Shown: positions 9,316 to 23,153, counted from the first letter of the stretch. The stretch is DNA of 64,000 bases from Gloeobacterales cyanobacterium (GCA_038245785.1 JBBRSB010000010.1:1-64000); one strand, 5' to 3'. Program-made: numbers and translations. The notes: generated from the letters alone by a model not told the origin.

Positions 9316-9687
9316 ATGGCTGAAACAGCAGAAGCGACAAAAACTGGGGAAGCCAAGGGAATCCAACTGACGGATTCAGGGTTGAGAGAAGTGCTTCGTT
9401 TACGTGAACGCAAAGGCTCAGACCTATGGCTACGGGTAGGAGTCAAAGGAGGCGGGTGCTCAGGACTCTCGTACACTATGGATTTTGATAGCCCTGATAG
9501 TGTTACTGAACATGACGAAGTGTATGCTTACGCTTCAGGCTTTAGTGTCATTGTCGATAAGAAGAGTCTTTTGTATCTATACGGTCTGGTCCTCGACTAC
9601 AGCGATGACTTGTTGGGCGGAGGATTCAAGTTCGTAAACCCTAATGCCGAACGTTCTTGTAGCTGTGGCTCGTCGTTTTCCACATAA
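9316..9687 (+). CDS. iscA: Iron-sulfur cluster assembly accessory protein (IscA/HesB)
   Basis: GGCSGLSY and C-terminal CSCGSSF; directly follows iscS. Confidence 0.93.
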   Translation: MAETAEATKTGEAKGIQLTDSGLREVLRLRERKGSDLWLRVGVKGGGCSGLSYTMDFDSPDSVTEHDEVYAYASGFSVIVDKKSLLYLYGLVLDYSDDLLGGGFKFVNPNAERSCSCGSSFST

Positions 9688-9706
9688 ACAACTATTAGCG
9701 CCTTCT

Positions 9707-9736
9707 AGCCATCCTTTATATAAAGGATGGCTTTTT
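9707..9736 (+). terminator. Intrinsic terminator between convergent iscA and PPIase genes
   Basis: AGCCATCCTTTA-TA-TAAAGGATGGCT palindrome followed by a T-run. Confidence 0.8.
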
Positions 9737-9745
9737 CATGGGCCT

Positions 9746-10477
9746 TTAAGAGGGGAATCTACGATCTAATTCTTGAGACAGCCACTCTTGAAACATTCTA
9801 TGGACGATTTCCTGTCGTCTTTGATCTGTTAATTCTGCAGGAATCAATTCTTCAACCAAGAGCAGGTGATATCCTTTTTCCGTTCTGAGTGGACCAATAA
9901 TCTCATGTACAGGTGCAGTAAACGAAGCTTCAGCAATATCAGAGTCTAAGTCTGAGCGATAAAATATTCCTTCATAACCGCACTGGTGTCTACGTCGCTC
10001 ATCAATATCGTAGAGATGGGCCGCTTCATAGAAACTAAGTTCTTGCTCTTTAATTTGATGAATAACGTCATCTACAACTCTTTCATAAGGGACAATAGTC
10101 TGATAAAGTACGACCTGATCAAATTCAGCCTGGTGTTCATAAAAAAATCTTTCTGCAGCATCGAAGAATAGAGAAGTAGCCAATTTTTGTCGAATTAAAC
10201 GATCATAAACTCCTGCTTCTAGATCATCTATATTAACTAGCTGCTGCTTGATCCAAAGCAAAATATCTGAGGCTTGTTCTAGATCTGTTGCTATAAACAT
10301 TTGATTGATATTAGCTTGCACTTCCTCGGGAGCAACGATAAGATTTCTCTCCTGAGCAACTTGATCAATTATTTTTTGACACAATATTTGATAATAAGTT
10401 TCTTTTAGTCGAAGAGTTTTTTGCAGAAATCTCAAAATCTCATCTGGTGTAACACGTAACTTTGAGAGGCTAGACAT
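9746..10477 (-). CDS. PpiC/SurA-like peptidylprolyl isomerase/foldase of peptide export cluster (copy 2)
   Basis: SFYEAAHLYDIDERRRHQCGYEG...IIGPLRTEKGYHLLLVE parvulin-like region; paralogue of 14319..15113. Confidence 0.85.
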   Translation of the reverse strand: MSSLSKLRVTPDEILRFLQKTLRLKETYYQILCQKIIDQVAQERNLIVAPEEVQANINQMFIATDLEQASDILLWIKQQLVNIDDLEAGVYDRLIRQKLATSLFFDAAERFFYEHQAEFDQVVLYQTIVPYERVVDDVIHQIKEQELSFYEAAHLYDIDERRRHQCGYEGIFYRSDLDSDIAEASFTAPVHEIIGPLRTEKGYHLLLVEELIPAELTDQRRQEIVHRMFQEWLSQELDRRFPS

Positions 10478-10568
10478 TTTTTAATTCTATTTTGGTAGAT
10501 TTTCACAAGCTTTACCTGCATTGCAAACCTATATAGATATGGATTTCAAATATCAGTTGTGAACTAAT

Positions 10569-10609
10569 AAATTTCAGTCTAAGACTGACTACGCCTTAGA
10601 CTGAAATTT
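10569..10609 (-). terminator. Hairpin downstream of peptide gene 10632..10913
   Basis: 15-bp arms AAATTTCAGTCTAAG / CTTAGACTGAAATTT. Confidence 0.7.
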
Positions 10610-10631
10610 TTACAGTTAAGCACTAAGAGAT

Positions 10632-10913
10632 CTAACTGGTAGATGTCGAGGTAGATACCTTTCCATCTTCAACAGAAGCACTAGCGTTAGAAGATGATGA
10701 CTTCACTATCGAGTTACTACTACCGGGATCATTACTACCGAAGGAAAAAGAGAAACTTGCAGGGCCACTAGACACAAAAGAAGGAATACCAGGCAAGAAA
10801 CCGAAACCACCAATGAAAGGGATAGGAGGTACAGAAGCACCACCTCTCACTCTATAAACACAAGGGGAATAAATTTCAAAAAAGTTTAAATCAACAATGG
10901 ATAAAGATTTCAT
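10632..10913 (-). CDS. Double-glycine leader peptide, Pro/Phe/Gly- then Ser-rich core
   Basis: Leader MKSLSIVDLNFFE...RVRGG; GAGGA RBS; lies inside the PCAT cluster. Confidence 0.8.
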   Translation of the reverse strand: MKSLSIVDLNFFEIYSPCVYRVRGGASVPPIPFIGGFGFLPGIPSFVSSGPASFSFSFGSNDPGSSNSIVKSSSSNASASVEDGKVSTSTSTS

Positions 10914-11200
10914 TGGACTTTCCTCGCAGAATGGTTTGGGTATTCAGCACATTGACTACTTCTAGCATCATTGCAAATCAGATAATGAAAAATAATTATA
11001 TTGCAGACAATGATAAAAGCTATAGATTAAGTTTACACCAAACCTATTTCCTTGATTTAAAGAAACAGTATTAGCATATTAGAAGTGGCCATATTACATT
11101 CAGCAAAAAGGTATTTATCAAAACCCCTTAAATTCTCTATGAGCTTAAAGAATTCATAAAGAAAATACAACTTAGAGCTGAAAAGTTCTGAGACAACCTA

Positions 11201-11240
11201 CTTCATAAGCTATCTAGATTAATTTAGACAGCTTATGAAG
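11201..11240 (-). terminator. Hairpin downstream of peptide gene 11255..11479
   Basis: CTTCATAAGCT...AGCTTATGAAG arms. Confidence 0.7.
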
Positions 11241-11254
11241 CTTGACCAACGATA

Positions 11255-11479
11255 CTAACTAAAATTAATACCATCTTGACCATTAAAAGAAATGTTATCT
11301 GCAATTGATATTGCAGTAGCATTACCTCTGAAGGCCTGAGCGGTAGAATAGGCTGTAGCATACTGCCTAACATCGATAACGTTGTACTGAACGTTGCTTT
11401 GTGAGAAATAGCCTAAGCCACCTGCAAGATTTGTTGATGGAGAAACTTCTCCCAGATAGCTCAAATCGGAAATAATCAT
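11255..11479 (-). CDS. Double-glycine leader peptide, N/Q/Y-rich core (tandem paralogue 4, most divergent)
   Basis: MIISDLSYLGEVSPSTNLAGG leader plus a 53-aa core that aligns without gaps to the three neighbours; AGGAG RBS. Confidence 0.92.
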   Translation of the reverse strand: MIISDLSYLGEVSPSTNLAGGLGYFSQSNVQYNVIDVRQYATAYSTAQAFRGNATAISIADNISFNGQDGINFS

Positions 11480-11559
11480 AGTTTTGCTCCTGCAAGCTCA
11501 TGTTTAATAGAAAAGGTCGAGCTGTTACAAACAATATAAATGCATATACAAAATCATGT

Positions 11560-11572
11560 TGCCACTTTGGCA
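11560..11572 (-). promoter_or_regulatory. TGCCA-N3-TGGCA palindrome 21 nt upstream of TATATT -10-like box
   Basis: + strand TGCCACTTTGGCA; the same site recurs upstream of each cassette. Confidence 0.75.
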
Positions 11573-11609
11573 TAAATCCTAATTAAAAATAGAAAATGCA
11601 TACCTTCAG

Positions 11610-11657
11610 AGAAAATACTGGTGACTACTAAATATAGATATGTCACCAGTATTTTCT
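11610..11657 (-). terminator. Hairpin downstream of peptide gene 11722..11946
   Basis: 16-bp arms AGAAAATACTGGTGAC / GTCACCAGTATTTTCT; a second weaker hairpin lies at about 11667-11701. Confidence 0.7.
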
Positions 11658-11721
11658 TTATTTCAATAGAGTACCTCTAATACGTAGGTCGAAGTACTCT
11701 ATATTTCAAGTTGAGCTTTCA

Positions 11722-11946
11722 TTAACTAATGTTGTAGTTGGACTGGTAAATGCTCGAAGAGTTGGGGACATAGGTAGAGGCGTATGCACTACCTCTAAAA
11801 GCTTCCGCATTGGAATAACCATTGGCGTACTGACTAACGTAGGCACTGTTGTACTGCGAGGTATTTTGATCAAAGAAACCAGCGCCACCTACAAGGTTAG
11901 TTGCTTCGGAAACTTCTTCCAAATAGACCAGATCAGAAATTTTCAT
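11722..11946 (-). CDS. Double-glycine leader peptide, N/Q/Y-rich core (tandem paralogue 3)
   Basis: MKISDLVYLEEVSEATNLVGG plus 53-aa core; AAGGAGAGA RBS. Confidence 0.95.
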   Translation of the reverse strand: MKISDLVYLEEVSEATNLVGGAGFFDQNTSQYNSAYVSQYANGYSNAEAFRGSAYASTYVPNSSSIYQSNYNIS

Positions 11947-12032
11947 TGGTTCTCTCCTTTAAATTAGTTTTCTGTTTAAGAACAACATTATGTTGCTCAT
12001 AATTAATATAGCTATCTTCTGTGTTCTCATGT

Positions 12033-12045
12033 TGCCACTTTGGCA
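12033..12045 (-). promoter_or_regulatory. TGCCA-N3-TGGCA palindrome 22 nt upstream of TATATT
   Basis: + strand TGCCACTTTGGCA. Confidence 0.75.
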
Positions 12046-12092
12046 GTGTTTCTCAATTCCAATACTCTTGATCAGAATATTATTTATCCAAA

Positions 12093-12141
12093 AAATAGCT
12101 GGAAGTTTCTTGTTTAACTAAGAATTAAACTCCAGCTATTT
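12093..12141 (-). terminator. Hairpin downstream of peptide gene 12155..12379
   Basis: AAATAGCTGGA...TCCAGCTATTT arms with an A-run on the left (U-tail on the minus strand). Confidence 0.65.
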
Positions 12142-12154
12142 GCCAACTTTCATG

Positions 12155-12379
12155 TTAGCTATAGTTCACATTATTCTGGTAAATTCCAGAGTAGTTGGAT
12201 ACACCGGTGGAGGCATATGCATTACCTCTAAAGGCTTCAGCATCAGAATAGCCATTGGCGTACTGATTGACATAAGCATTGTTCCACTGCGAGGTATTTT
12301 GATCAAAGTAGCCAGAGCCGCCTACAAGGGCAGTTGCTTCAGAAACTTCTTCCAAATAGACCAAATCAGAAATTTTCAT
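12155..12379 (-). CDS. Double-glycine leader peptide, N/Q/Y-rich core (tandem paralogue 2)
   Basis: MKISDLVYLEEVSEATALVGG plus 53-aa core; AAGGAGAGAG RBS. Confidence 0.95.
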   Translation of the reverse strand: MKISDLVYLEEVSEATALVGGSGYFDQNTSQWNNAYVNQYANGYSDAEAFRGNAYASTGVSNYSGIYQNNVNYS

Positions 12380-12465
12380 TGTCTCTCTCCTTAAAGTTAG
12401 TTTTCGCTTAATAACAACATTAAGTTGCTGTATAAATACTATAGATATTTTCTTGATTTTAGTGT

Positions 12466-12478
12466 TGCCAATTTGGCA
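12466..12478 (-). promoter_or_regulatory. TGCCA-N3-TGGCA palindrome 22 nt upstream of TATAGT
   Basis: + strand TGCCAATTTGGCA. Confidence 0.75.
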
Positions 12479-12522
12479 GGTATTCTATTAGGAAATAGAC
12501 ATATTTTTCAAAGAGTAAATAC

Positions 12523-12556
12523 AATGCAAGCTTTTTGATTATAAAAAGCTTGCATT
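12523..12556 (-). terminator. Hairpin downstream of peptide gene 12575..12799
   Basis: 14-bp arms AATGCAAGCTTTTT / AAAAAGCTTGCATT. Confidence 0.7.
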
Positions 12557-12574
12557 AGTCTTCATTCTCCAAAG

Positions 12575-12799
12575 TTAGCTAACGTTGAAGTTGGACTGGC
12601 CAATGCCTGAGTAGTTGGATACATTGGTATATGCAGATGCATTACCTCGAAAGGCTTCAGCATCAGAATAGCCAGTGGCGTACTGACTGACGTAAGCATT
12701 GTTGTACTGCGCGGTATACTGATTAAAGAAGCCAGAGCCGCCTACAAGGGCAGTTGCTTCGGAAACTTCTTCCAAATAGACCAAATCAGAAATTTTCAT
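12575..12799 (-). CDS. Double-glycine leader peptide, N/Q/Y-rich core (tandem paralogue 1)
   Basis: MKISDLVYLEEVSEATALVGG plus 53-aa core; AAGGAGAGAG RBS. Confidence 0.95.
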   Translation of the reverse strand: MKISDLVYLEEVSEATALVGGSGFFNQYTAQYNNAYVSQYATGYSDAEAFRGNASAYTNVSNYSGIGQSNFNVS

Positions 12800-12885
12800 T
12801 GTCTCTCTCCTTCAAATTAGTTTTGTAATTAAAACAACTTTATTAGGTTGCTACTATTACTATAGACAATAGAGCTTGAGAAGAT

Positions 12886-12898
12886 TGCCACTTTGGCA
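12886..12898 (-). promoter_or_regulatory. TGCCA-N3-TGGCA palindrome 21 nt upstream of TATAGT
   Basis: + strand TGCCACTTTGGCA. Confidence 0.75.
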
Positions 12899-12938
12899 GA
12901 TAGTTTCAGTCATCATGAAACACCAAGAATATGTCTTC

Positions 12939-12986
12939 AAAGACTAATGGAAGCTTCTTAATCATAAAAAGCTTCCATTAGTCTTT
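12939..12986 (-). terminator. Hairpin downstream of the peptide pseudogene
   Basis: 18-bp arms AAAGACTAATGGAAGCTT / AAGCTTCCATTAGTCTTT; homologous to the 12523-12556 hairpin. Confidence 0.7.
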
Positions 12987-12997
12987 AGCCTCCAAGA

Positions 12998-13087
12998 TCA
13001 GCTGAAGTTAATATTGGACTGACCAACTTAAGAAAGATTAGATGAAACTGTGGATGCAAATGCACTTCCTCCTTTAGCCTCTGAGGA
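12998..13087 (-). pseudogene. Degenerate fifth copy of the tandem peptide (C-terminal half, internal stop)
   Basis: Minus strand reads SSEAKGGSAFASTVSSNLS*VGQSNINFS*, aligning with DAEAFRGNASAYTNVSNYSGIGQSNFNVS. In-frame TAA at 13028-13030; leader not recognisable. Confidence 0.8.
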
Positions 13088-13225
13088 AAGTAAGGGTGGA
13101 CCGCTTGCTTTTGGCGGTATAAGAGTATGTCTTGCTCACATATGCCTGTGTCTAAACTAATAGCTCTTGATTCATTACCTGAGCAGAGCAGACTAGAAAT
13201 ATAGATAGCCTTGATCTGAATAGTT

Positions 13226-13238
13226 TACCAATTTAGTA
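13226..13238 (-). promoter_or_regulatory. Decayed copy of the palindromic site upstream of the pseudogene
   Basis: + strand TACCAATTTAGTA (3 mismatches), still 22 nt from TATATT on the minus strand. Confidence 0.45.
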
Positions 13239-13300
13239 TGCATTTACTCTGAGAATCTTTAATCTGGCTCAAACCTTCCAGCAATCTAATTCATTAGAGA

Positions 13301-13349
13301 CAATAAGAGCTGTGAGGCGTTTCATTGAATCGCTTCATAGCCCTTATTG
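13301..13349 (-). terminator. Imperfect hairpin downstream of 13378..13668
   Basis: CAATAAGAGCTGTGAGGCG...CGCTTCATAGCCCTTATTG. Confidence 0.55.
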
Positions 13350-13377
13350 CTAATCTAAGATAGCAGATAAGAAGATT

Positions 13378-13668
13378 CTAACCTCTAGCACTGGATTTAG
13401 CATTGGCGAAACCACCAATTGAAGTCGCTGCAGAAGCTGCCCCAGCGGCACCACCAATGCTGAGTAAATCAACTTTGAATCCACTTAGTTGATCTCCTGT
13501 CACGTTGTAGTCTGTAGCATATCTAGTATCATAGGCAGTATCGTATGCTAGTGAGTAACTAGGGGTGCTACTTGCACTAGCTGAAATACCACTTCCTCCG
13601 CTTATACAAATTTCTCCAGCACATACCGCCTCAAGAAAGTTAAGATCAGTGATTGCGAACTGACTCAT
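13378..13668 (-). CDS. Double-glycine leader peptide, 96 aa, Ser/Ala/Tyr-rich
   Basis: Start at ATG 13668 after AGGAG RBS: MSQFAITDLNFLEAVCAGEICISGG|SGISASASS...AYDTAYDTRYATDY... Confidence 0.85.
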   Translation of the reverse strand: MSQFAITDLNFLEAVCAGEICISGGSGISASASSTPSYSLAYDTAYDTRYATDYNVTGDQLSGFKVDLLSIGGAAGAASAATSIGGFANAKSSARG

Positions 13669-13704
13669 GGCACTTCTCCTTTTTTTATACAATGAGGCTA
13701 GTTC

Positions 13705-13935
13705 TTAGCCTACAGCGACAGAAGAAGATGCAGCGACGGAACTAGAGAAAAGACCTGCTACGCCAGCTGTCTTCGTAAACGTTTTGGTCTCAGTAAGATA
13801 GCCAAGAGCATCTGCTTGCGCTAAGGAACTAGCTGAAGCTATAGGCGGAAAGCCATAAGTTGGCACACCGCTTCCTTCTACACAACTTGCATCTTCAGAG
13901 ATGGCTCCTAGATAGTTTAGATCAGAAATAATCAT
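13705..13935 (-). CDS. Leader peptide of the same family (GS/SG variant cleavage site), Ser/Ala/Thr-rich core
   Basis: MIISDLNYLGAISEDASCVEGSG...; GGGAGA RBS. Confidence 0.85.
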   Translation of the reverse strand: MIISDLNYLGAISEDASCVEGSGVPTYGFPPIASASSLAQADALGYLTETKTFTKTAGVAGLFSSSVAASSSVAVG

Positions 13936-14016
13936 TAGATTTCTCCCTTATAATTCACTGGAAACAGCCTTTTTGGTTGTCTACAAACAGATTAATTGAG
14001 AAAGATAAAAACATGT

Positions 14017-14029
14017 TGCCAAATTGGCA
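14017..14029 (-). promoter_or_regulatory. TGCCA-N3-TGGCA palindrome 22 nt upstream of TAATCT
   Basis: + strand TGCCAAATTGGCA, upstream of the 13935 gene. Confidence 0.7.
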
Positions 14030-14055
14030 TCTTTTAAAATTACGTATATTTAAAC

Positions 14056-14090
14056 AAAAAAATGCTTAGTTCACCAGAGTAAACCAAGCA
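14056..14090 (-). terminator. Intrinsic terminator on the minus strand
   Basis: Minus strand TGCTTGGTTTAC-TCTG-GTGAACTAAGCA-TTTTTTT (12-bp stem with two G-U pairs and a U7 tail). Confidence 0.75.
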
Positions 14091-14263
14091 AGGCCGACAT
14101 TATCAGGGGTTCGAAAACTTTTTCTAGTTCTTAAAGAATTATCTAAAAGGGATAGCTAAAATTCTATTGCTATCTATATTTTCAACTTCTTTAGAGGAAA
14201 ACATAAGAAGCTAAAGTTAGTAGTTTTAATAGGCAAGCATCCTTTTAGATAATGGACTGTATC
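14056..14263 (-). ncRNA. Candidate structured small RNA (~205 nt)
   Basis: Bounded by the palindrome/TATAGT promoter (14270-14309) and the U-tailed terminator. Contains a long imperfect hairpin closed by ATTATCTAAAAGG (14138-14150) / CCTTTTAGATAAT (14241-14253). Only very short ORFs. Confidence 0.45.
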
Positions 14264-14296
14264 GATAACACTATAGATAATCTAATTAATAGCAGG

Positions 14297-14309
14297 TGCC
14301 ATTTTGGCA
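14297..14309 (-). promoter_or_regulatory. TGCCA-N3-TGGCA palindrome 21 nt upstream of TATAGT
   Basis: + strand TGCCATTTTGGCA; -10 box at 14270-14275. Confidence 0.7.
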
Positions 14310-14318
14310 TTAATCTAT

Positions 14319-15113
14319 TCACAAATTACTTTGAGAAGAAGAATGATTAGACTTTGAGTCAAAACTAGACAGCCAATGCAATTTTTCTTGCTCCAGCCAT
14401 TGCCTAAATAAATCCTCAGTTATTTTCTGATGAAGCGGTTGGATTAACTCTGCAGAAAGAATTTGTTCAATCATGAGTAGATGCCATCCCTGATCGTTGG
14501 ACACTGGCCCTGCTATCTCTCCTACCGTCACGCCAAAAGCGGCGGTGGCTAAATCTGGTTTCATTTCCCAGCGACTGACCTCACCTTCATAGCCACAGCG
14601 ACGGCCTCGCTGCATGTTGACATCAAACTGATGGGCCGCTTCGAAGAAACTAATTTCTTGGTCTTGTATACGATAGAGCACCTCGTAGGCCAATGCCTCT
14701 GAAGCGAGCGTAATTTGATACAGTACAGCCCGATCATACCCCAGTCGATTTTCTGCAAAGACTTGATCCGCCTTCTGAGAATAGAGCTGATCAGCCAACT
14801 TGCATCTCAGCACCTGTTTTTGCAAACCTGCTTCAAAGTCTTCCTCATCAACCTGCTGTTCATTGAGCCAGGTTAAAGTATCTGAAGCTTTTTCCAGGTG
14901 ATGCTGTCTACGGAATTGGTCTGCTTCCATTTGAATTTCTTCTGGCGTAACTTCGATACCTCGACTCTGTGCATTCCAGGCAATTATCTCTTGGTACAAC
15001 AAAGTATCTCTTACCTTTTTAAACTGGAATGTCTGCCGTAGATAACTACTAACAGCTTTGAATTCTTCTTGTTGGTTTGAGGCTGTCAATTTAGGGAAAG
15101 CAACATTTAGCAT
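14319..15113 (-). CDS. PpiC/SurA-like peptidylprolyl isomerase/foldase of peptide export cluster (copy 1)
   Basis: GIEVTPEEIQMEAD SurA-N-like helix; SFFEAAHQFDVNMQRGRRCGYEG...GPVSNDQGWHLLMIE. Confidence 0.85.
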   Translation of the reverse strand: MLNVAFPKLTASNQQEEFKAVSSYLRQTFQFKKVRDTLLYQEIIAWNAQSRGIEVTPEEIQMEADQFRRQHHLEKASDTLTWLNEQQVDEEDFEAGLQKQVLRCKLADQLYSQKADQVFAENRLGYDRAVLYQITLASEALAYEVLYRIQDQEISFFEAAHQFDVNMQRGRRCGYEGEVSRWEMKPDLATAAFGVTVGEIAGPVSNDQGWHLLMIEQILSAELIQPLHQKITEDLFRQWLEQEKLHWLSSFDSKSNHSSSQSNL

Positions 15114-15139
15114 GTGTATTCATCCACAAATAGGGGTAA

Positions 15140-15325
15140 TTAGCTAGTGCTGAAGCAAGAGCACGTAGATGATGAGAAGCTTTCCCTATGTCTAGAGGAA
15201 GCCTTTGCCAAAACAGACTGTTTTGTCTGATTTCGTTCAGAGTCAATAACAATACTAGTTGAATCTGCAGTTGCACGTTCATTACAAGAAACAGCATGCG
15301 TTCTTAGAATCTTCTGGCGAATCAT
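15140..15325 (-). CDS. Small Ser-rich protein without GG motif
   Basis: AGAGG RBS 6 nt before ATG; lies in operon orientation between hetP and the PPIase. Confidence 0.55.
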   Translation of the reverse strand: MIRQKILRTHAVSCNERATADSTSIVIDSERNQTKQSVLAKASSRHRESFSSSTCSCFSTS

Positions 15326-15433
15326 AACTAACCTCTTTTAGAGCCTCATCTTATAACCAAGAGTCAATGCACTCAGCATAGACAGGCTAATCAATCAATT
15401 GTCGCTATCTCGACAAAATTTTACTTAAAGCCC

Positions 15434-15796
15434 TTAGCTGGATAGCATAAATTCCATACTTATACCAGTAGGGTACAATGGCATCATGCCGCCCCGCACT
15501 CTTGACTGAAATGCAGTTTCTAGATGAGGCAAATCATCAATAACAGCAACTCTTTGAGCGTTCTGTTTGCGAAGCTGAGAAACTCCACAGTTCAAAACAT
15601 ACTGAGCCGATTTGTCTGATTGCAGGACAGACTGCTTTCTAACTTGTATATTCTCTTTCAGAAGCCTATTGTAGGTGCGGTAGGGAATGTAGTGCAGGGG
15701 ATTAAGCCCATTAGAACGCAACAGCAGCACACAAGCCCAGGAATATTTACCATCTACAATCGCGTCAATGATCTGATCTAATTTTTCAGGAAGCAC
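15434..15796 (-). CDS. hetP: HetP family protein
   Basis: [43 protein letters not shown] is the HetP signature; C-terminal IDDLPHLE...VRGG. Confidence 0.92.
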
Positions 15797-15838
15797 GTTT
15801 TTACCCTCTTATGTTTTCAAAAGATACATCTGGCATTT

Positions 15839-17245
15839 CTAAAGGCTAAAACCACCTTTCTGTAACTGCTCAATGGGATCGAGAAGAAAACTAATAATTC
15901 GGCGCTGACGAATAACGACTTCAGCACTCGCTGTCTGACCACTCTTGAGTTGAACAGGACGACCATTGCTGATAATATAAGAACGATCAAGTTTAATTTT
16001 CAGCTTATAGATTTCTCCTAATTGGGAGTCTGTTTGAGCATCAGGCGATATGCTTTGCACTCGACCTGATAACATGCCAAACTCTTGATAGGGATAAGCA
16101 TCTAGTTTGATATTTACAGGCATACCCGTTCGTGCAAAACCTGCCTCACGATTGGGCAGACGGGCTTCTAGAACAAGAGGGGCTTTTTGTGGAGCAAGCT
16201 CAGCAATAGTTTGCCCAGGCTGGATAACCTCTCCCACATTTTTAACCTGCAAAGAAGAGACTGTACCGCTAATTGGGGCATAGACAAATCGCCTGCGGAG
16301 GCGCTGTTCAGCCATCTGTAAACGGCTTTGTATTTCGCTTAGTTCAGCATGCGCTTGAGTGACCTGCATTCTGAGTTCTTGAACTTTCTGCTGCGCTTGG
16401 AGGATAGCCGTATTTCCTTCCGCTCGTTGTTTTAGCAAGAGTTCTCGATTCTGAGCGATAGTCTGATTAGCATTATCTAAATCTCCTGAATGCTGGATCA
16501 ATTGAGCTTCACGATCATGGAATGCTTGCTCGGCAGAAAAGACCTGCTCACGGGAAATAGCTCCAGAATTCACTAAAGGAATAAGACGATTTAACCGTTC
16601 TTGATGTCGTTTGATGTCTGCTTGACTCTGCCGGGCCATCCGGCCCAGATTGGCGCTACGGGCCTGCGCTTGGGTAATTAAGCTTTGCTGAGCAGCTTGA
16701 GCCGCATTCGCTTGTTGTTGGCGACTGCTTAGCTCTGCCTGCGCCTGTGCCAGTAAACCTTCAGTCTGGAGAAGGCGCATCTGAGAAGTGTTTAGGAGTT
16801 GTCTCTGAAGATCTATTTCTGTATGTAAGCTTTCTGGCTCCAGATCAACTAGCACTTGTCCTTTCTGAACCGACATGCCTTCTCGAATACGCAGACGGGC
16901 AATTTTTCCTGTCTCAGGAAGCTGAAGTTTGTACAGGCTGCCTTGGGGGACAAGCTTGCCTTGGGCCTTGCCTACTTCATCAATTTGGCCAAACCAACTC
17001 CAAGTACCAACACCCCCAAGAAGCAAGAGTACACCAGCTAAAGCATATAAGGGCAGTCTAGAAGGGGGAGACTGTAAAACTTCCTGCACCGCTGGCGACC
17101 ACTGAGTGATCTCTTGCGTCTGAAAATGCACTAAGGCTACAGACTCCGCCGAGGTGTGTTGGAGTTGAGAACGGTCTGGTGAAGGTGTGGAAGAAGGAGT
17201 AATCATAGCTATCCCCATTAAAAAGAGTATGGAAACAGAATTCAA
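15839..17245 (-). CDS. HlyD family type I secretion membrane fusion protein
   Basis: Single TM segment, long Gln/Ala coiled coil, APISGTV, KLDAYPYQEFG and LKSGQTASAEV. True start may be ATG 17218 or 17206. Confidence 0.95.
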   Translation of the reverse strand: MNSVSILFLMGIAMITPSSTPSPDRSQLQHTSAESVALVHFQTQEITQWSPAVQEVLQSPPSRLPLYALAGVLLLLGGVGTWSWFGQIDEVGKAQGKLVPQGSLYKLQLPETGKIARLRIREGMSVQKGQVLVDLEPESLHTEIDLQRQLLNTSQMRLLQTEGLLAQAQAELSSRQQQANAAQAAQQSLITQAQARSANLGRMARQSQADIKRHQERLNRLIPLVNSGAISREQVFSAEQAFHDREAQLIQHSGDLDNANQTIAQNRELLLKQRAEGNTAILQAQQKVQELRMQVTQAHAELSEIQSRLQMAEQRLRRRFVYAPISGTVSSLQVKNVGEVIQPGQTIAELAPQKAPLVLEARLPNREAGFARTGMPVNIKLDAYPYQEFGMLSGRVQSISPDAQTDSQLGEIYKLKIKLDRSYIISNGRPVQLKSGQTASAEVVIRQRRIISFLLDPIEQLQKGGFSL

Positions 17246-17292
17246 GAGAGAATCTTTCGATCGGATGGGCTATTTTTTAGGTTCGCCTCTCC

Positions 17293-20200
17293 TTACAGCA
17301 CCAGTTGTTGCTGTGCTAAGTACGCGTAAAGCCCTTTGCGTTTAATCAGCTCAGCATGAGTTCCTTGTTCTGCAAGTACACCTCGGTCCAGCACAAGAAT
17401 TTGATCGGCATCGCGCACGGTAGATAGGCGGTGCGCAATGACCAGCATGGTGCGTCCTTGCCGGACTTCTTGAAGATTTTGCTGGAACCGTCGTTCTGAC
17501 TCTGTATCTAAAGAACTGGTCGCCTCATCCAAAATTAAAAATTGTGGATTGTGCAGGAGGGCGCGCGCAATAGCAATGCGCTGTCGTTGCCCCCCAGAGA
17601 GGTTAGCCCCCCGCTCTCCCACTTTCGTTTCATAACCTAAAGGGAATTCCTGAATAAAGGCATGGGCTTCCGCTAATTGGGCAACCTCGATCACTTGCTC
17701 CAGATTGTACTGAGGCTGAAATAAGGTGATATTTTCGCGAATAGTACCGGAGAAGAGGAAGCATTCCTGAGGAACCACACCAATCTGACGGCGTAAAGAT
17801 ACAGGAGAGACTTGAGCAAGATCATAGTCATCAAGCAGAATACGTCCCTTGTCTGGTTTGTATAATCCCTGAATCAACTTAGCCAGGGTACTCTTGCCAG
17901 AACCCGAACGCCCTACAATCGCAACCACCTGCCCTGGTTGGATTTCAAAACTTAAATTCTGCAGCGTATTCGTCTCAGCATCTTTGTTGTAGCGAAAGGT
18001 GACATTCTCAAAGCAGAGATGGCCGTGGAGGAAGGGTAACTGAATGCCTTGTTCTGGACTGGGAGTTTCCGGAGTCGCCTCAAAAACATCATTCAAACGC
18101 TCTACGGATACCACTACTTCTTGGAACTCATCCCATAATCCTACAAATCTCAAGACAGGCCCAATTACGTTTCCGACCAGCATATTGAAGGCCACAAACT
18201 GTCCAATAGTAAGTTGTTCTTGAATAACGAGGTTAGCTCCATACCAGAGCAGGGCCGTACTCCCTAAGGTGTTGAATAAACTACCCACAGAACTTAAGCC
18301 ATTTGCCAGTTTTTGTCCCTTGAAAACAGAGTTGAGCGTAGCCGTGAAACGGTCCTCCCATAACCAGCGCAGATCCCGTTCGGCCGCCGCAGATTTTACG
18401 GTGGCGATACCCGAAAAGGTTTCTACTAGAGTCGAGGTGGCAGCAGCTTCCCGATTAAAAATTTCTCGTGAGATACGACGCAAAAAGGGAGTAGAACCCA
18501 CAGTCAGCAAGACAAAGGGCGGAATCAAAGCTAACACGAGCAGCGTAAGTTGCGCATTGTAGTAAAACATCAACCCCAGGTAGACGAATACCATAAGGGT
18601 ATCCAGCCAGACAGAAAGGGCCTGACGGGTGAGAAATGCTTGAATCTTTCGATTTTCCTGGACACGGGTGATCAGGTCTCCCACATGCCGCATTTCAAAG
18701 AAGCCCAAGGGCAGTGTCAAGGCATGGTTGATAAAACCACTGATCATCGTCAAATCAAGTCGATTGGAGAAATAGTCCAATAGGTACTGACGGAAAGCAG
18801 ACAATCCGACCTGCCACACTCCGAACAGGATAAGGCCAATAGAGAAGACATTCAGGGCTACCTGACTTTTTTGGACAACCACTTTGTCTAGAATAATCTG
18901 CGTAAATAAAGGAGTGACGAGACCCAGAATCTGCAGTAGAAAAGTCATCAGCAAAATCTGGGCCATGGTGTTTCGATAGGGCCATAACAACCCAAGAAAA
19001 CGCCACAGGGAACTTTTACTTTCCGGGGTTTCTTTAAAGCGTGGCGTGGGTTCCAAAAGCAGAGCATAACTGGTCCAATTTTTTTGGAATTCAGCTGGTT
19101 TGAGGCGGCGGATGCCCATAGCCGGATCAGCCACGACTACTTTTTGCGGAGTGACTTTATAAACCACTACGTAATGGTCTCCCTGCCAATGGGCAATCCA
19201 GGGATGGGGTTGCGTTACCATCCGGTCAAAACTGGCCCGCACAGGACGGCTCTGAAAGCCCAGCGTTTCTGCCGCCGCCGCCAGAGACCGTAAAGAAGCA
19301 CCATTCCGTCCTACCCCAATTTGCTCTCGCAATTGGTTGATATCTAAACGTTTACCCCAGAAAAGACCAATCATGCGCAAGCAGGCTGCACCACAATCAG
19401 CCGCACTTTGCTGTTCTGCAAACGGATAGCGCCACCGAAATTTAGGGAGGAGGTTAGGACCGGGAAAAGCAACAGCCACCTTTTGCTTTTTTGGAGGGGG
19501 CGCTTTCTGACCAGGCCCAGAGACTACTTCCATGGGGGTAGGCACTATAGGCTTGACGGCAGTAGCAGAAAGAACAGATTCCCAGAGCGCTGAGGGCAGG
19601 TGATATACCTGCACATCCTTCACTGCTAGCCAATCACTTTGATTTGGCTCCCAGCGGCTTCCCACGGACACGGATTCTCCAACAGCATCCGTACTAGGCT
19701 GCACAGCCCCTTCCTTGAGCCAGTAAATTCCTGGTTTCAGACTGCTAAAGCGAGTCTTGGAAGGAATATTCTCTAAAGTGGCCTCTTCAGCCAGTTTTCT
19801 AAACTGTGGACCAGACAGGGTATGTAATCCTGCTTTCAAGCGTAAGAATAGAAGCTTTTGCTGATAAGCCAATTGTTCCGTAATGAGTTTTTGGAGCTTG
19901 GGATACCGTGACTGCCAGTGCGCAAGCCTATCTTTGGGTAAGCACCAAACACGAACAGGTCCGGCCGCAACCATCTGATGCGCAAACTCCGCTTCTGCAG
20001 AAACAAAAAATAAATCGGCAGATGTGAGTAAAGCCACATTAACCTTTGTCCCGTTTGCCTGAGTAGCAATGAGTCGGGCCCGACCACTGACAATTACAAA
20101 CAGCTCAGAATCTTGTTTGTCTGCAGTTAAACCGACTTCAGCAATAACCTCACCAAGGCCATATTCTTTGAGCTGTGGATATTGGGATAGTTCCTGTAAA

Positions 20201-20310
20201 GCCTGAGGAGGGAGTTGCTCTGCCCAGTGACTAGACTGGAGTAGTTCTAAAGGCCAGTTTTGGGATAATTCGATATGCTCAGAAGGCCAAGCGGGCACAC
20301 TTTTCTGCAT
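17293..20310 (-). CDS. Peptidase-containing ABC transporter (degenerate cNMP-binding region + C39 peptidase + TMD + NBD), HetC/PteB-like
   Basis: QQSAADCGAACL (catalytic Cys), HWQGDHYVV and ADPA; Walker A GRSGSGKS, LSGGQRQR, ILDEATSSLD and IAHRLST. Confidence 0.96.
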   Translation of the reverse strand: MQKSVPAWPSEHIELSQNWPLELLQSSHWAEQLPPQALQELSQYPQLKEYGLGEVIAEVGLTADKQDSELFVIVSGRARLIATQANGTKVNVALLTSADLFFVSAEAEFAHQMVAAGPVRVWCLPKDRLAHWQSRYPKLQKLITEQLAYQQKLLFLRLKAGLHTLSGPQFRKLAEEATLENIPSKTRFSSLKPGIYWLKEGAVQPSTDAVGESVSVGSRWEPNQSDWLAVKDVQVYHLPSALWESVLSATAVKPIVPTPMEVVSGPGQKAPPPKKQKVAVAFPGPNLLPKFRWRYPFAEQQSAADCGAACLRMIGLFWGKRLDINQLREQIGVGRNGASLRSLAAAAETLGFQSRPVRASFDRMVTQPHPWIAHWQGDHYVVVYKVTPQKVVVADPAMGIRRLKPAEFQKNWTSYALLLEPTPRFKETPESKSSLWRFLGLLWPYRNTMAQILLMTFLLQILGLVTPLFTQIILDKVVVQKSQVALNVFSIGLILFGVWQVGLSAFRQYLLDYFSNRLDLTMISGFINHALTLPLGFFEMRHVGDLITRVQENRKIQAFLTRQALSVWLDTLMVFVYLGLMFYYNAQLTLLVLALIPPFVLLTVGSTPFLRRISREIFNREAAATSTLVETFSGIATVKSAAAERDLRWLWEDRFTATLNSVFKGQKLANGLSSVGSLFNTLGSTALLWYGANLVIQEQLTIGQFVAFNMLVGNVIGPVLRFVGLWDEFQEVVVSVERLNDVFEATPETPSPEQGIQLPFLHGHLCFENVTFRYNKDAETNTLQNLSFEIQPGQVVAIVGRSGSGKSTLAKLIQGLYKPDKGRILLDDYDLAQVSPVSLRRQIGVVPQECFLFSGTIRENITLFQPQYNLEQVIEVAQLAEAHAFIQEFPLGYETKVGERGANLSGGQRQRIAIARALLHNPQFLILDEATSSLDTESERRFQQNLQEVRQGRTMLVIAHRLSTVRDADQILVLDRGVLAEQGTHAELIKRKGLYAYLAQQQLVL

Positions 20311-20383
20311 ACAATTCTCCTCAAAGATTACGTAACGGAAAAGCAGATAGATTGTTGCTCTTTTTTAAGTTAGGGACTAAAAG

Positions 20384-20399
20384 TGTATCTGAAAATACA
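20384..20399. promoter_or_regulatory. NtcA-box-like site
   Basis: TGTA-TCTGAAAA-TACA (GTA-N8-TAC), about 75 bp upstream of the PCAT start; no TAnnnT at the canonical 22-nt spacing. Confidence 0.4.
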
Positions 20400-20509
20400 A
20401 TGTTTTGTTTCTTGACGAGTGCATCCTACACCCTAAATTAAGTCGTTACAACAGCCCTTTCTTATATTTTCTTTATATTTGTTAATTAGCGACATTTATA
20501 AGTTCTATT

Positions 20510-20544
20510 AGTCCGGACATAATTAAATTAATTATGTCCGGACT
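20510..20544. repeat. Perfect inverted repeat, 17-bp arms
   Basis: AGTCCGGACATAATTAA-A-TTAATTATGTCCGGACT. Confidence 0.9.
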
Positions 20545-20740
20545 TGCTTAATCCAGCATTTGAAATGCCTTACTCAAAAGATGCATTTTAGAGGAGTTCT
20601 ATTCCTTACTGTATAGTCAATACACAAGATAACAAGCTATTAAAATAGTCATCTTTTTGCAGAATATAACAATATTTGGAGTGGTCGCTTTTGTGCAAAG
20701 GTCAACAAGTTTTGTCGTGAACTTTCTTCATTTTTTGTGC

Positions 20741-20779
20741 ATTGAAAGATCTTTAGGTCGTATTGAAAGATCTTTAGGT
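20741..20779. repeat. 18-bp direct repeat with 21-bp period
   Basis: ATTGAAAGATCTTTAGGT at 20741-20758 and 20762-20779; each copy contains the palindrome AAAGATCTTT. Confidence 0.9.
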
Positions 20780-20789
20780 ATCGAAAAAC

Positions 20790-20802
20790 TGCCAAAGTGG
20801 CA
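20790..20802 (+). promoter_or_regulatory. TGCCA-N3-TGGCA palindrome 21 nt upstream of TATGAT, facing rightwards
   Basis: TGCCAAAGTGGCAACA, the exact reverse complement of the 11557-11572 site. Confidence 0.7.
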
Positions 20803-20867
20803 ACACCTCTTTATGGTTTTATATATGATGAAGGGATAGGCTTTCTAGAAACTATATAAAGAGAGCG

Positions 20868-21017
20868 GTGAAATATCCTTTACCTTTAAAGCTTGACAAT
20901 GTAGAACTAGCCAACCTCGATCTTTTGGAAGAGCAAGACAAAAATATTGCCCCTGGGCTACTATTGCGAACTAAGTATGACTTCATCTGTCAAAAGGCTG
21001 GAAAATGTCTTTCTTGA
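20868..21017 (+). CDS. Unannotated 49-aa ORF downstream of the rightward promoter
   Basis: GTG start after GAGAG: MKYPLPLKLDNVELANLDLLEEQDKNIAPGLLLRTKYDFICQKAGKCLS. Confidence 0.35.
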   Translation: MKYPLPLKLDNVELANLDLLEEQDKNIAPGLLLRTKYDFICQKAGKCLS

Positions 21018-21067
21018 TAGATGCTAGATAAATTCAAGCGTAGGTTTAGAAAAATCGCTAGCTAGAG

Positions 21068-21310
21068 TTAGTTAGGCTTATGGGTTGCGAGTCCTAAATC
21101 CATAGGATGACTGATGCTATGTCCATCACAAATCACCAAATCTGGTTTTAACGGCAGTCTGACAAAGGTTTCTAGTAGAGGGGCACTTCCTGGAAAGATG
21201 CTAGTCCTGGAACATAAATTATCCGTTAGCACCTGAGCACGCAACAAGCTCCTTTGAAGCAAGCGGGCTTTTTGCGTAGTGACGTCCCATCGATGAAACG
21301 ATTTTGATGT
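21068..21310 (-). pseudogene. nfi: Endonuclease V remnant
   Basis: HRWDVTTQKARLLQ resembles the EndoV N-terminus and LKPDLVICDGHSISHPMDLGLATH resembles PDLIxCDGxGIAHPRRxGLAxH. Large internal and C-terminal losses. Confidence 0.7.
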
Positions 21311-21435
21311 GGATCAGCGGACGAAGTAATCCAATACAATAGAGTTTTAGCTTCTCGGCTAATTATCTCTACCTTCTATCCTGTACGGGTTTTAGGAATT
21401 GGGTCATACTAGATAGCACAGGATGGTGTGGTCTC

Positions 21436-22767
21436 ATGCTCAGGATTGTTACCCAGCGAGCAGAAGCAGAACAAGAGTTGAGGCGTCTTGCCTCTCGGAC
21501 CCATTCGGACCAAGTAATTCATAAAGAATCTACGGTCCGAGAGATCCTGCTGAATGTAAAACGTTCTGGGGACGAAGCTCTGATCCGTTATACGCTTGAA
21601 TTCGATCACGTAGATCTGCAGCAGGTCGGACTCACGATTTCTCCAGAAGAGAAGGCGCGGGCCTACGAGATGATCTCGGCCAAGCTCTTGAAAGCAATTC
21701 GGCTGGCGCACCAAAGGATTGAAGCATTTCATCGAGAACGCGTCCCCAAATCATGGGTAACTCATGGACCGCATGGGATCGTCCTTGGTAAAAAAATCAC
21801 CCCTGTCGATATAGCCGGGCTTTATATCCCTGGGGGGAGAGCTAGCTATCCGAGTACCGTATTAATGAATGCAATACCAGCAAAAGTGGCTGGGGTACCG
21901 CGCATTGCCATGGTGACACCTCCGAGTGCAAACTCTTCTAGCCTGGGGAATGAAAGTATCAACCCAGCGGTTTTAGTTGCAGCCCAAGAAGCAGGAATTC
22001 AAGAAATTTATCGGGTTGGAGGAGCTCAGGCGATTGGAGCCTTGGCCTATGGCACCCAGACCATTCCCAAAGTAGATGTGATCACAGGTCCTGGGAATAT
22101 CTATGTAACCCTAGCCAAGAAGCTGGTCTATGGAGAAGTAGGCATTGATTCTTTAGCCGGTCCCTCGGAAGTCTTGGTGATTGCCGACCATACTGCTAAT
22201 CCTTTATGGGTCGCGACAGATCTACTCGCCCAGGCAGAGCACGACCCTTTAGCTTCGGCTATCTTGCTGACTCCCAGTGAAACCGTCGCGCATCAAGTCG
22301 TAATCGAAGTGGAGAAGCTGCTCAAAACCCATGAGCGTAGAGTGCTTACGGAAAAGTCGATTGCTAACTATGGTCTAGTAGTTATTACCTCAGACTTAGA
22401 GGAAGCCACTGAACTCTCTAACCTTTTTGCTCCAGAACATTTAGAGCTAGAAGTAGAAGATCCGTGGGCTTTACTTCCTAAAATTCGGCATGCGGGAGCT
22501 GTGTTCCTGGGTCACCATACCCCCGAAGCGATCGGAGACTACCTGGCGGGGCCAAACCACACCTTGCCAACCTCTGGAGCCGCTCGACATAGTTCCGCTT
22601 TGGGCGTGGAGACTTTCATGAAGTCCACAAGCTTGATTCACTATAGTCCTGAAGCTCTCGCCGAAGTCGCTGAAGCGATTGACGAGTTGACGTGGGCAGA
22701 AGGTTTACCTTCTCACGGAGACTCCGTGCGCTTCCGTTTAGGAGATACAGAGAAAAATTCAGGATAG
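21436..22767 (+). CDS. hisD: Histidinol dehydrogenase
   Basis: GLYIPGGRASYPSTVLM, IDSLAGPSE, AQAEHD, APEHLE and GPNHTLPT. Confidence 0.98.
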   Translation: MLRIVTQRAEAEQELRRLASRTHSDQVIHKESTVREILLNVKRSGDEALIRYTLEFDHVDLQQVGLTISPEEKARAYEMISAKLLKAIRLAHQRIEAFHRERVPKSWVTHGPHGIVLGKKITPVDIAGLYIPGGRASYPSTVLMNAIPAKVAGVPRIAMVTPPSANSSSLGNESINPAVLVAAQEAGIQEIYRVGGAQAIGALAYGTQTIPKVDVITGPGNIYVTLAKKLVYGEVGIDSLAGPSEVLVIADHTANPLWVATDLLAQAEHDPLASAILLTPSETVAHQVVIEVEKLLKTHERRVLTEKSIANYGLVVITSDLEEATELSNLFAPEHLELEVEDPWALLPKIRHAGAVFLGHHTPEAIGDYLAGPNHTLPTSGAARHSSALGVETFMKSTSLIHYSPEALAEVAEAIDELTWAEGLPSHGDSVRFRLGDTEKNSG

Positions 22768-23153
22768 TCAGCTGTAACCCGCTAATTCAGGTGATTAGCC
22801 AGCTTCAATGCTGAAACATATTCATTGGCAAAAACTTAAATCCTGTAATCTTTAATACAGTTCAAGAGTCAAATTGTATTAAAAATTGCATTGCTAAAAG
22901 AAATATCCCGTGTGGTTACACGATACGCTTCTGAAACAGAAAAGATTATTATTAGGCCACAAAAGCAGATTATTTAAGGTGTGAACTATCCTTTTGGATT
23001 GGGCACCTTAGATATTAGCCGAGTTTAGATTGAGCATATTCAAGCGACCTAACTGTTGTGAAGAGCCGCATTTTTTTGCTGCTCACTTGAATCTGCGCAT
23101 CAATGGTGATGAAAAAAGTAGAGAGAAAGTAAAGCAGGAGTGAAAAGGTAACA

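Follow-up and report, generated by a model that had tools for sequence, protein, structure and literature searches.

Tandem Gly-Gly-leader peptides of a Gloeobacterales cyanobacterium as probable single-hairpin units of an extracellular beta polymer

Export of small proteins behind a Gly-Gly (GG) leader to build a matrix amyloid is already published for cyanobacteria. In Synechococcus elongatus the GG-leader peptides EbfG1-4 are required for biofilms and were reported to be without homologues outside that species (PMC4997328), EbfG1-3 form amyloid in E. coli while EbfG4 is found at the cell surface as well as in the matrix (PMC9981879), and a study of Anabaena went no further than predicting amyloid hotspots in candidate EbfG homologues (PMC12267927). 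Wang 2011 described group I and II cyanobacterial clusters combining a long-type exporter of the C39 peptidase ATP-binding cassette class (C39-ABC) that bears a nucleotide-binding extension with HlyD, a SurA-type rotamase, a HetP-like gene and arrays of precursors (PMC3140520). Polymers of long beta-hairpins are found in cyanobacteria as well, in the CT pilus (MrpC) of Microcystis, which is a double-layer antiparallel sheet, and in the gas-vesicle protein GvpA (PMC12397347). The subject here is an array of four small genes in a 64,000-nucleotide stretch of a Gloeobacterales cyanobacterium genome (GCA_038245785.1, JBBRSB010000010.1:1-64000), called the window. The four genes are members of an unnamed family of cyanobacterial peptides with export leaders, each one long hairpin, and the pattern they show is more general than was first noted. 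With a probability of roughly 0.6 their cores are secreted structural peptides that build up, in the sheath or biofilm matrix, a beta polymer of two layers.

The genes lie head to tail, each encoding 74 residues made up of a 21-residue leader ending in GG and a 53-residue core, the positions of which are numbered here from the residue after GG:

12575..12799, minus strand: hairpin peptide copy 1, 74 residues, core at 12578-12736
12155..12379, minus strand: copy 2 of the hairpin peptide, sharing 81% identity with copy 1
11722..11946, minus strand: copy 3 of the hairpin peptide, sharing 76% identity with copy 1
11255..11479, minus strand: hairpin peptide copy 4, of a second subfamily

The strict two-residue invariance that the initial annotation had pointed to in copies 1-3 holds, all 23 inner positions (12 even ones from Q6 to A28 and 11 odd ones from A33 to S53) being invariant as against 4 of the 21 intervening, outer positions (Y15, Y19, Y23 and E27; Fisher p=9e-9), and it is on the latter that substitutions fall. 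With all four copies the proportions are 16/23 inner and 2/21 outer (p=5e-5), the two faces having been defined for this test after the data were seen. In copies 1-3 the codons at 12 of the 23 inner positions vary synonymously and none changes its residue, whereas 17 of the 21 outer positions change residue, and because the inner codons vary only synonymously one face is under purifying selection at the level of the protein, its constancy being not just that of a recent duplication. Copy 4 departs at 7 of the 23 inner positions, A14I together with I45N among them, and is nearer to metagenomic homologues (up to 76% identity) than to copies 1-3 (53-55%). A proposal that facing residues whose positions sum to 61 (i+j=61) are complementary in size did not survive: the paired side-chain volumes give r=0.00 in copy 1 and 0.56 in copy 4 (-0.18 and 0.15 at i+j=59), and since they do not anticorrelate general size complementarity is unsupported. 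The change from G22/V39 to A22/A39 in copy 4, taken earlier as compensatory, is there as a substitution, but A or S is the family norm at both positions and G22/V39 is confined to copies 1-3 among 48 gapless rows, so that it counts as one event. The four cores contain no Cys, no Lys and one Pro in total, as first described, although the absence of Lys, like Q6, T8, N51 and S53, is local to the window copies and not family-wide; their net charge of -1 to -2 agrees with the view that they are atypical of cationic bacteriocins.

Pfam and NCBIfam give no assignment for any core. Family searches returned 13, 87 and 136 matches, the named ones being cyanobacterial hypothetical proteins, and matches at E 1e-5 or better occur in 32 of 401 cyanobacterial genomes, a figure that counts the wider leader superfamily because many are leader-only. 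Within the 87, 34 long matches were dropped as compositional (10 of 11 scanned were DUF285, and 30 of the 34 carry a DUF285-like word). An apparent multi-repeat protein (P0194), the single long match, is two genes read through, and no genuine multi-repeat form was found among 8000 scored candidates; one homologue known as protein only (P0012, 91 residues, on a 244-kilobase contig) has an internal partial duplication of the hairpin. The alternation, which the initial annotation expected homologues to keep, is kept in the 60-protein alignment, in 31 distant rows and in 95 rows. The first of these, of 60 short proteins (63 minus 3 dropped), has it from core position 10 to 49; the consensus for the family is QxNxAxVxQxAx(A/S)x(A/S)xA...G(D/N)Ax(A)x(A/S)x(A/S)xNxSxIxQxN. 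Across the 31 gapless rows less than 50% identical to the window copies the entropy is 1.1 bits for inner and 3.1 for outer positions, with charged residues at 1.7% and 20% and aromatics at 0.3% and 16%, in keeping with a conserved buried face and a variable exposed one. Since the search profile favours alternating rows, two independent tandem arrays, their members picked up as neighbours, were tested also, with registers set by anchor motifs: that of Oscillatoria PCC 10802 has 16/19 inner and 5/17 outer positions invariant, and that of Myxacorys 11/16 and 1/14. The two-anchor alignment kept 95 of 159 short proteins (effective number of sequences 61), many of those viewed among the 64 below threshold being other subtypes, and has Q18 and N41 invariant in 95/95 kept rows, the profile used for keeping being one that favours such rows. 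The outer face is rich in Thr, Ser and Tyr and is without a conserved Thr array. Subtypes with the same leader (13705-13935 of the window; L024, L029, L039 and L053 elsewhere) have longer or three-stranded cores of alternating Ala/Ser/Thr, and from such sequences the whole leader superfamily looks beta-sheet forming.

A single fold-back with a buried small-residue face is strongly supported, because the variants in turn length, the inner covariation at 59 and 61 and the AlphaFold2 model agree. Between core positions 26 and 35 the 95 rows have 8 residues (56 rows), 4 (15), 13 (12), 9 (9), or 5, 12 or 14 (1 each), and as the spacing is never 6 or 10, the variants being of -4, +1 and +5 and none of ±2, it seems that whole inward-facing rungs are removed or added. 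Covariation between inner positions peaks at i+j=59 (p=4e-4; pairs 14/45 and 16/43) and at i+j=61 (p=0.008), p-values that ignore kinship, while over the same rows the outer face shows no covariation and its charge pairing no clear register. AlphaFold2 with 58 sequences gives a long fold-back at a mean predicted local distance difference test (pLDDT) score of 70.6, with strands at residues 30-40 and 63-73, that is core 9-19 and 42-52 (core sum 61), and with pLDDT of 88-89 at residues 41-60 around the turn, where strands are unassigned. The fold about the F-R-G turn is therefore upheld; as for the i+j=61 register put forward with it, covariation does favour it, but 59 is at least as well supported, and for neither register did the covariation prove independent of kinship. 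Staggered inner contacts, the silent outer face and the unassigned strands near the turn lead to a curli-like arch there being slightly favoured, as a model, over a hydrogen-bonded hairpin. No match of a fold search reached E 0.001, either in the Protein Data Bank (PDB) or in viral models, and the best (VIA search) had Z 2.5 with a root-mean-square deviation of 6.5 Å over 52 residues. This points only to a long hairpin of generic kind, not to a novel fold; a PDB sequence search gave just 2 matches, both with E above 1. Complex prediction with four core copies scored 0.01 and was counted neither for nor against assembly.

Next to the array is an export system:

17293..20310, minus strand: long-type exporter with cyclic nucleotide (cNMP)-binding, C39 peptidase and ABC domains (PF00027, PF03412, PF00664, PF00005)
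15839..17245, minus strand: HlyD-type periplasmic adaptor (TIGR01843 above cut-off)

The exporter has 1005 residues with the catalytic Cys motif present, TolC-type genes are present elsewhere in the genome, and exporter and HlyD also flank related peptides in 4/4 long loci scanned (L009, L011, L014 and L053). On the preferred reading each hairpin gene would be expressed from its own promoter by a putative activator bound at the TGCCAnnnTGGCA site, the leader would be cut at GG, and the 53-residue core would pass out through the adjacent C39-ABC and HlyD and a TolC-type channel encoded elsewhere, as is general for these protein families. A single fold-back of the core at F29-R30-G31, giving two strands of some 20 residues each, is strongly supported. 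Near the turn its inner face would offer only Ala, Ser and Gly, with the invariant Gln18/Asn41 and an Asn/Gln/Val/Ile clamp further out, and because this face is too flat and small for the core of a monomer it presumably packs against its counterpart on a partner, be that a strand or a subunit. Subunits would then hydrogen-bond edge to edge to yield a cross-beta fibril, ribbon or tube, with Asn/Gln ladders running in the stack and the variable Tyr/Thr/charged face probably outward. Assembly into fibres or sheets outside of the cell is thus regarded as the most likely fate of the peptides.

A number of observations pull the other way. What is shown of the peptides is their genes, selection pattern, family and export context, while expression, secretion and assembly are inferred. 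The EbfG peptide with the best core fit by eye, EbfG4, was not amyloid on its own in the published assay (PMC9981879). The covariation signal comes from one block of four positions (14, 16, 43 and 45). Once the tree is taken into account only 2-3 independent pairs remain on supported branches, most of them agreeing in direction, and in this underpowered test the sign test is not significant. The predicted template modelling score from AlphaFold2 is 0.37, and the nearest solved shapes are beta-barrel pore stems and phage collars (Z 2.5 or less), so that a barrel oligomer is geometrically possible. Comparison of the family profile with EbfG gave hhalign probabilities of 0.9% and 10.9% and a best genome match at E=1.5, and the EbfG exporter (PteB) is of a short type with 714 residues, in contrast to the long type with 1005 residues and a cNMP domain in the window.

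The geometry just described could also end in a finite oligomer or a surface film, a small dry-cored barrel or a monolayer on cells or minerals in the manner of chaplins, hydrophobins or antifreeze proteins and without long fibrils. A flat Ala/Ser face would pack tightly in a barrel just as in any two-layer assembly, the Thr/Ser/Tyr-rich outer face is in keeping with a film, and flat-sheet antifreeze proteins provide an analogy; the outer face is nevertheless without a conserved Thr array, and buried invariant Asn and Gln are most simply the ladders of a stacked polymer, such ladders being typical of stacked amyloid polymers, which makes this outcome rather unlikely. A microcin-like antibacterial action, with hairpins forming a membrane-damaging beta-barrel and amyloid at most a side state, draws on the fact that a GG leader with C39-ABC/HlyD is the class II bacteriocin export route (PMC3140520), on one microcin, MccAB1, that is both toxic and fibre-forming (PMC13188072), and on a variable face that could reflect an arms race. 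Pore-toxin stems are also the best fold matches, non-significant ones with E above 0.01 and a template modelling score of 0.42 or less, but neither face is membrane-like, the conserved one being of Ala/Ser/Asn/Gln and the variable one 20% charged, the cores are net negative, and no immunity gene was recognised among the open reading frames (ORFs) of the cluster, where it should be said that such genes are poorly annotated; the microcin reading is accordingly judged improbable. Least probable, and by some way an outside chance, is that these are precursors of chemically modified peptides or signals that are cut to short active pieces. Such clusters have indeed been catalogued as precursors of bacteriocins or of peptides made on the ribosome and modified after translation (RiPPs) (PMC3140520) and the cores are Ser/Thr-rich, yet Pfam and NCBIfam family scans revealed no modifying enzyme among the cluster ORFs beyond rotamase-domain proteins, Cys occupies 10 of 3040 hairpin positions in the 95-row alignment, and a two-residue periodicity kept over 40 residues with rung-wise indels is needless for a short signal.

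The remaining features of the cluster are:

15434..15796, minus strand: HetP-family protein (NF037966, 98 bits, cut-off 45)
14319..15113, minus strand: SurA/PpiC-type rotamase-domain protein (PF00639 above cut-off, TIGR04500 below cut-off)
13705..13935, minus strand: small ORF of 76 residues whose leader is of the same type (leader match E=0.027)
13378..13668, minus strand: small ORF with a related leader, 96 residues (similar ORFs in L009 and L010)
12940..13135, minus strand: degraded fifth copy, of which the 3' portion of the hairpin gene is left, broken by a stop and small indels
12522..12557, minus strand: terminator-like stem-loop after copy 1
12093-12141, 11610-11657, 11201-11240 and 12939-12986: strong inverted repeats after copy 2, copy 3, copy 4 and the remnant
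10632..10913, minus strand: Ser-rich small ORF of 93 residues whose GG leader is related, without family match
9746..10477, minus strand: second of the rotamase-domain proteins, with which the cluster ends (above cut-off for PF00639 and PF13145)

The core of ORF 13705-13935 is of a different subtype with alternating Ala/Ser/Thr, similar ORFs being present in loci L009, L010 and L053. A stem-loop or inverted repeat follows each copy and the remnant, which suggests from sequence that each hairpin gene is its own transcription unit. The remnant has a hidden Markov model match at 13001-13084 (E=0.0015, 1 TAA) with which a DNA alignment and repeat D4 agree, and it keeps intact a downstream hairpin the same as that after copy 1; a degraded copy with its stem-loop intact implies that the array is turning over.

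GC content is 38% in the peptide/HetP/rotamase block (9746-15800), while exporter genes and genome both have 48%, and with the peptide family matched in 1 of 13 other genomes of the order and the HetP of the cluster in 0 of 13, horizontal gain of the block is plausible from these sequence features. The sole other family match in the order is L008:1495-1713 (G002, of the same genus), which a transposase-like ORF adjoins and which has the palindrome described below 82 nucleotides upstream. KaiC gave no match in the genome (98% complete) while the S. elongatus control gave one, and the Gloeobacter-like group is not known to carry kai genes, so the missing match fits an early-branching, Gloeobacter-like cyanobacterium. 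Rfam gave no match across 9500-23200. At 23154-25943 (plus strand), 3 kilobases from the cluster, is a gene for a probably secreted protein of 929 residues with FG-GAP repeats, a Pro-rich linker and a GH141-like beta-helix.

Upstream of the hairpin genes is a palindrome, TGCCA-N3-TGGCA, its occurrences in the window being:

12886..12898: 86 nucleotides before copy 1, with a TATAGT box 21 nucleotides downstream
12466..12478: 86 nucleotides before copy 2
12033..12045: 86 nucleotides before copy 3
11560..11572: 80 nucleotides before copy 4
14017..14029: 81 nucleotides before ORF 13705-13935
14297..14309: with a TATAGT box downstream on the minus strand, no ORF of at least 40 residues starting within 300 nucleotides
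20790..20802: between genes, upstream of the exporter and with an apparent plus orientation

The site is a candidate regulatory switch common to the four genes. Its 7 occurrences in the window, all in or beside the cluster, compare with 0.09 expected, and the inner 4-3-4 form occurs 58 times in 90.8 kilobases of related loci (many from one genus) versus 0-2 times for other spacers. Elsewhere, 28 of 64 leader-bearing genes have the palindrome 75-115 nucleotides upstream, extended as TGCCAAaaTGGCAAC, and a TAnnnT box starts about 22 nucleotides after it, placing the palindrome centre near -41 of a start site deduced from that box; a centre near -41 is where class II activators sit. Several loci are without the palindrome, the Myxacorys array among them, and its exact form is missing from 20 kilobases around ebfG. 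Genome-wide counts were uninformative (15 sites in the own genome versus 1-14 for other spacers), as was its presence in 79 of 121 genomes, a reversed control also matching often, and a search for a HetZ-related regulator was blank with its controls blank as well. The motif of the HetZ paper, TCCGGA, is different, the SigF and CrtB papers give no motif, and no publication describing the palindrome was found in a search that motifs shown only in figures or supplements would escape. The site at 14297-14309 may be a second promoter for the peptide array or belong to a small RNA, and that at 20790-20802 points off the exporter to a 49-residue ORF at 20868-21017 (plus strand) with no family match at E 1e-8. 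By the Oscillatoria cluster the palindrome also occurs about 100 nucleotides before two secreted-looking genes (L009:657 and L009:17450), one with a below-cut-off PEP-CTERM match; five PEP-CTERM genes of Nostoc are reported to be under an indirect control the route of which is unknown (PMC12188702).

Very little is known of the proteins that scaffold cyanobacterial mats, sheaths and biofilms, and the family offers 53-residue candidates, easily synthesised and from culturable genera, with a predicted buried and exposed face and a predicted register, while the conserved upstream site is direct bait for the regulator. More tentatively, and somewhat short of an even chance, the 'MIISDL-leader' peptides of the group I/II 'bacteriocin' clusters might in general not be bacteriocins but a modular single-hairpin kit for an undescribed type of cross-beta filament or sheet outside the cell, of EbfG-like design, with a silk-like Ala/Ser zipper, an Asn/Gln clamp, a tunable hairpin length, a freely variable surface and a phylum-wide activator at TGCCAaaaTGGCA, about -41. 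If true, a large class of presumed bacteriocin clusters would become matrix-export systems, and a scaffold that assembles by itself and has one face free to vary would be a useful lead for biomaterials.

As to known systems, curli CsgA/CsgB and FapC are secreted proteins of Asn/Gln-rich strand-turn-strand units, and the N-x-A-x-V-x-Q word of the window cores resembles a curlin repeat. In place of these, to which the cores were first likened, EbfG is the nearest precedent; 0 of 58 family members match curlin or Fap in Pfam at E up to 1, the window peptides have one 40-residue fold-back per chain in place of several short repeats, and type I export with leader cleavage differs from the Sec/CsgG route of curli. 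The CT pilus and MccAB1 would be analogues only: the 12-kDa CT pilin has two hairpins, a helix-turn-helix, a signal peptide and a glycosylation cluster, in contrast to one fold-back, a GG leader and no such neighbours in the window (PMC12397347), and neither the CT pilus nor GvpA gave a PDB sequence match or was among the listed fold matches. Nearest named by language-model features is the CTB family (NF038167/PF28158; 0.90 for the whole protein, 0.81 for the core), which likewise comprises tandem cyanobacterial GG peptides, although the four window copies have no NF038167 match (cut-off 32 bits) and 1 of 58 members matches at E=0.035. With its long-type C39-ABC, HlyD, SurA/rotamase and nearby GG-leader precursors the cluster fits groups I and II of Wang 2011, a study that treats the cores as diverse RiPP precursors and assigns no fold or function (PMC3140520). 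The window leader strings had 0 matches in 5 text supplements of that paper, tables given as pictures being such as would escape, and a literature search found no publication on the fold of the window peptide family.

For EbfG, operons were located in genomes G428 and G018 by published motifs. As in the window, tandem small GG-leader proteins lie there beside a C39-ABC exporter and HlyD, and EbfG1-3 have small-residue-rich cores with alternation at 12/16 versus 0/14 positions (six sequences from the two genomes). The leader is unlike that of the window, the hotspot A-hydrophobic-N-I-small is absent from the four window cores, copy 4 having ADNIS, and the loop of EbfG1-3 is flanked by the conserved Asn and Gln, residues that the window family has at the open end. 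The half-motifs of EbfG1-3 (L059:1178-2144 and L055:13150-14140) are reversed, a small-residue strand ending in Asn, a loop and a Gln-started strand, like a circular permutation of the window hairpin; AlphaFold2 on the six-sequence alignment was uninformative at pLDDT 47.5. Gapless alignment of the G428 EbfG4 core to the family profile beats shuffles (p about 0.002-0.005; the G018 copy is not significant), with G31, A33, N41, I45 and Q47 in register with the family, 2 of 9 sequences so tested having p under 0.01, and EbfG4 scores -24.6 bits against a family minimum of 34.6. Because the alternation is common to both but the profile comparison is insignificant and the exporter class differs, the window peptides are described as EbfG-like by design and not assigned as members; it is in its design that EbfG appears to be the closest precedent.

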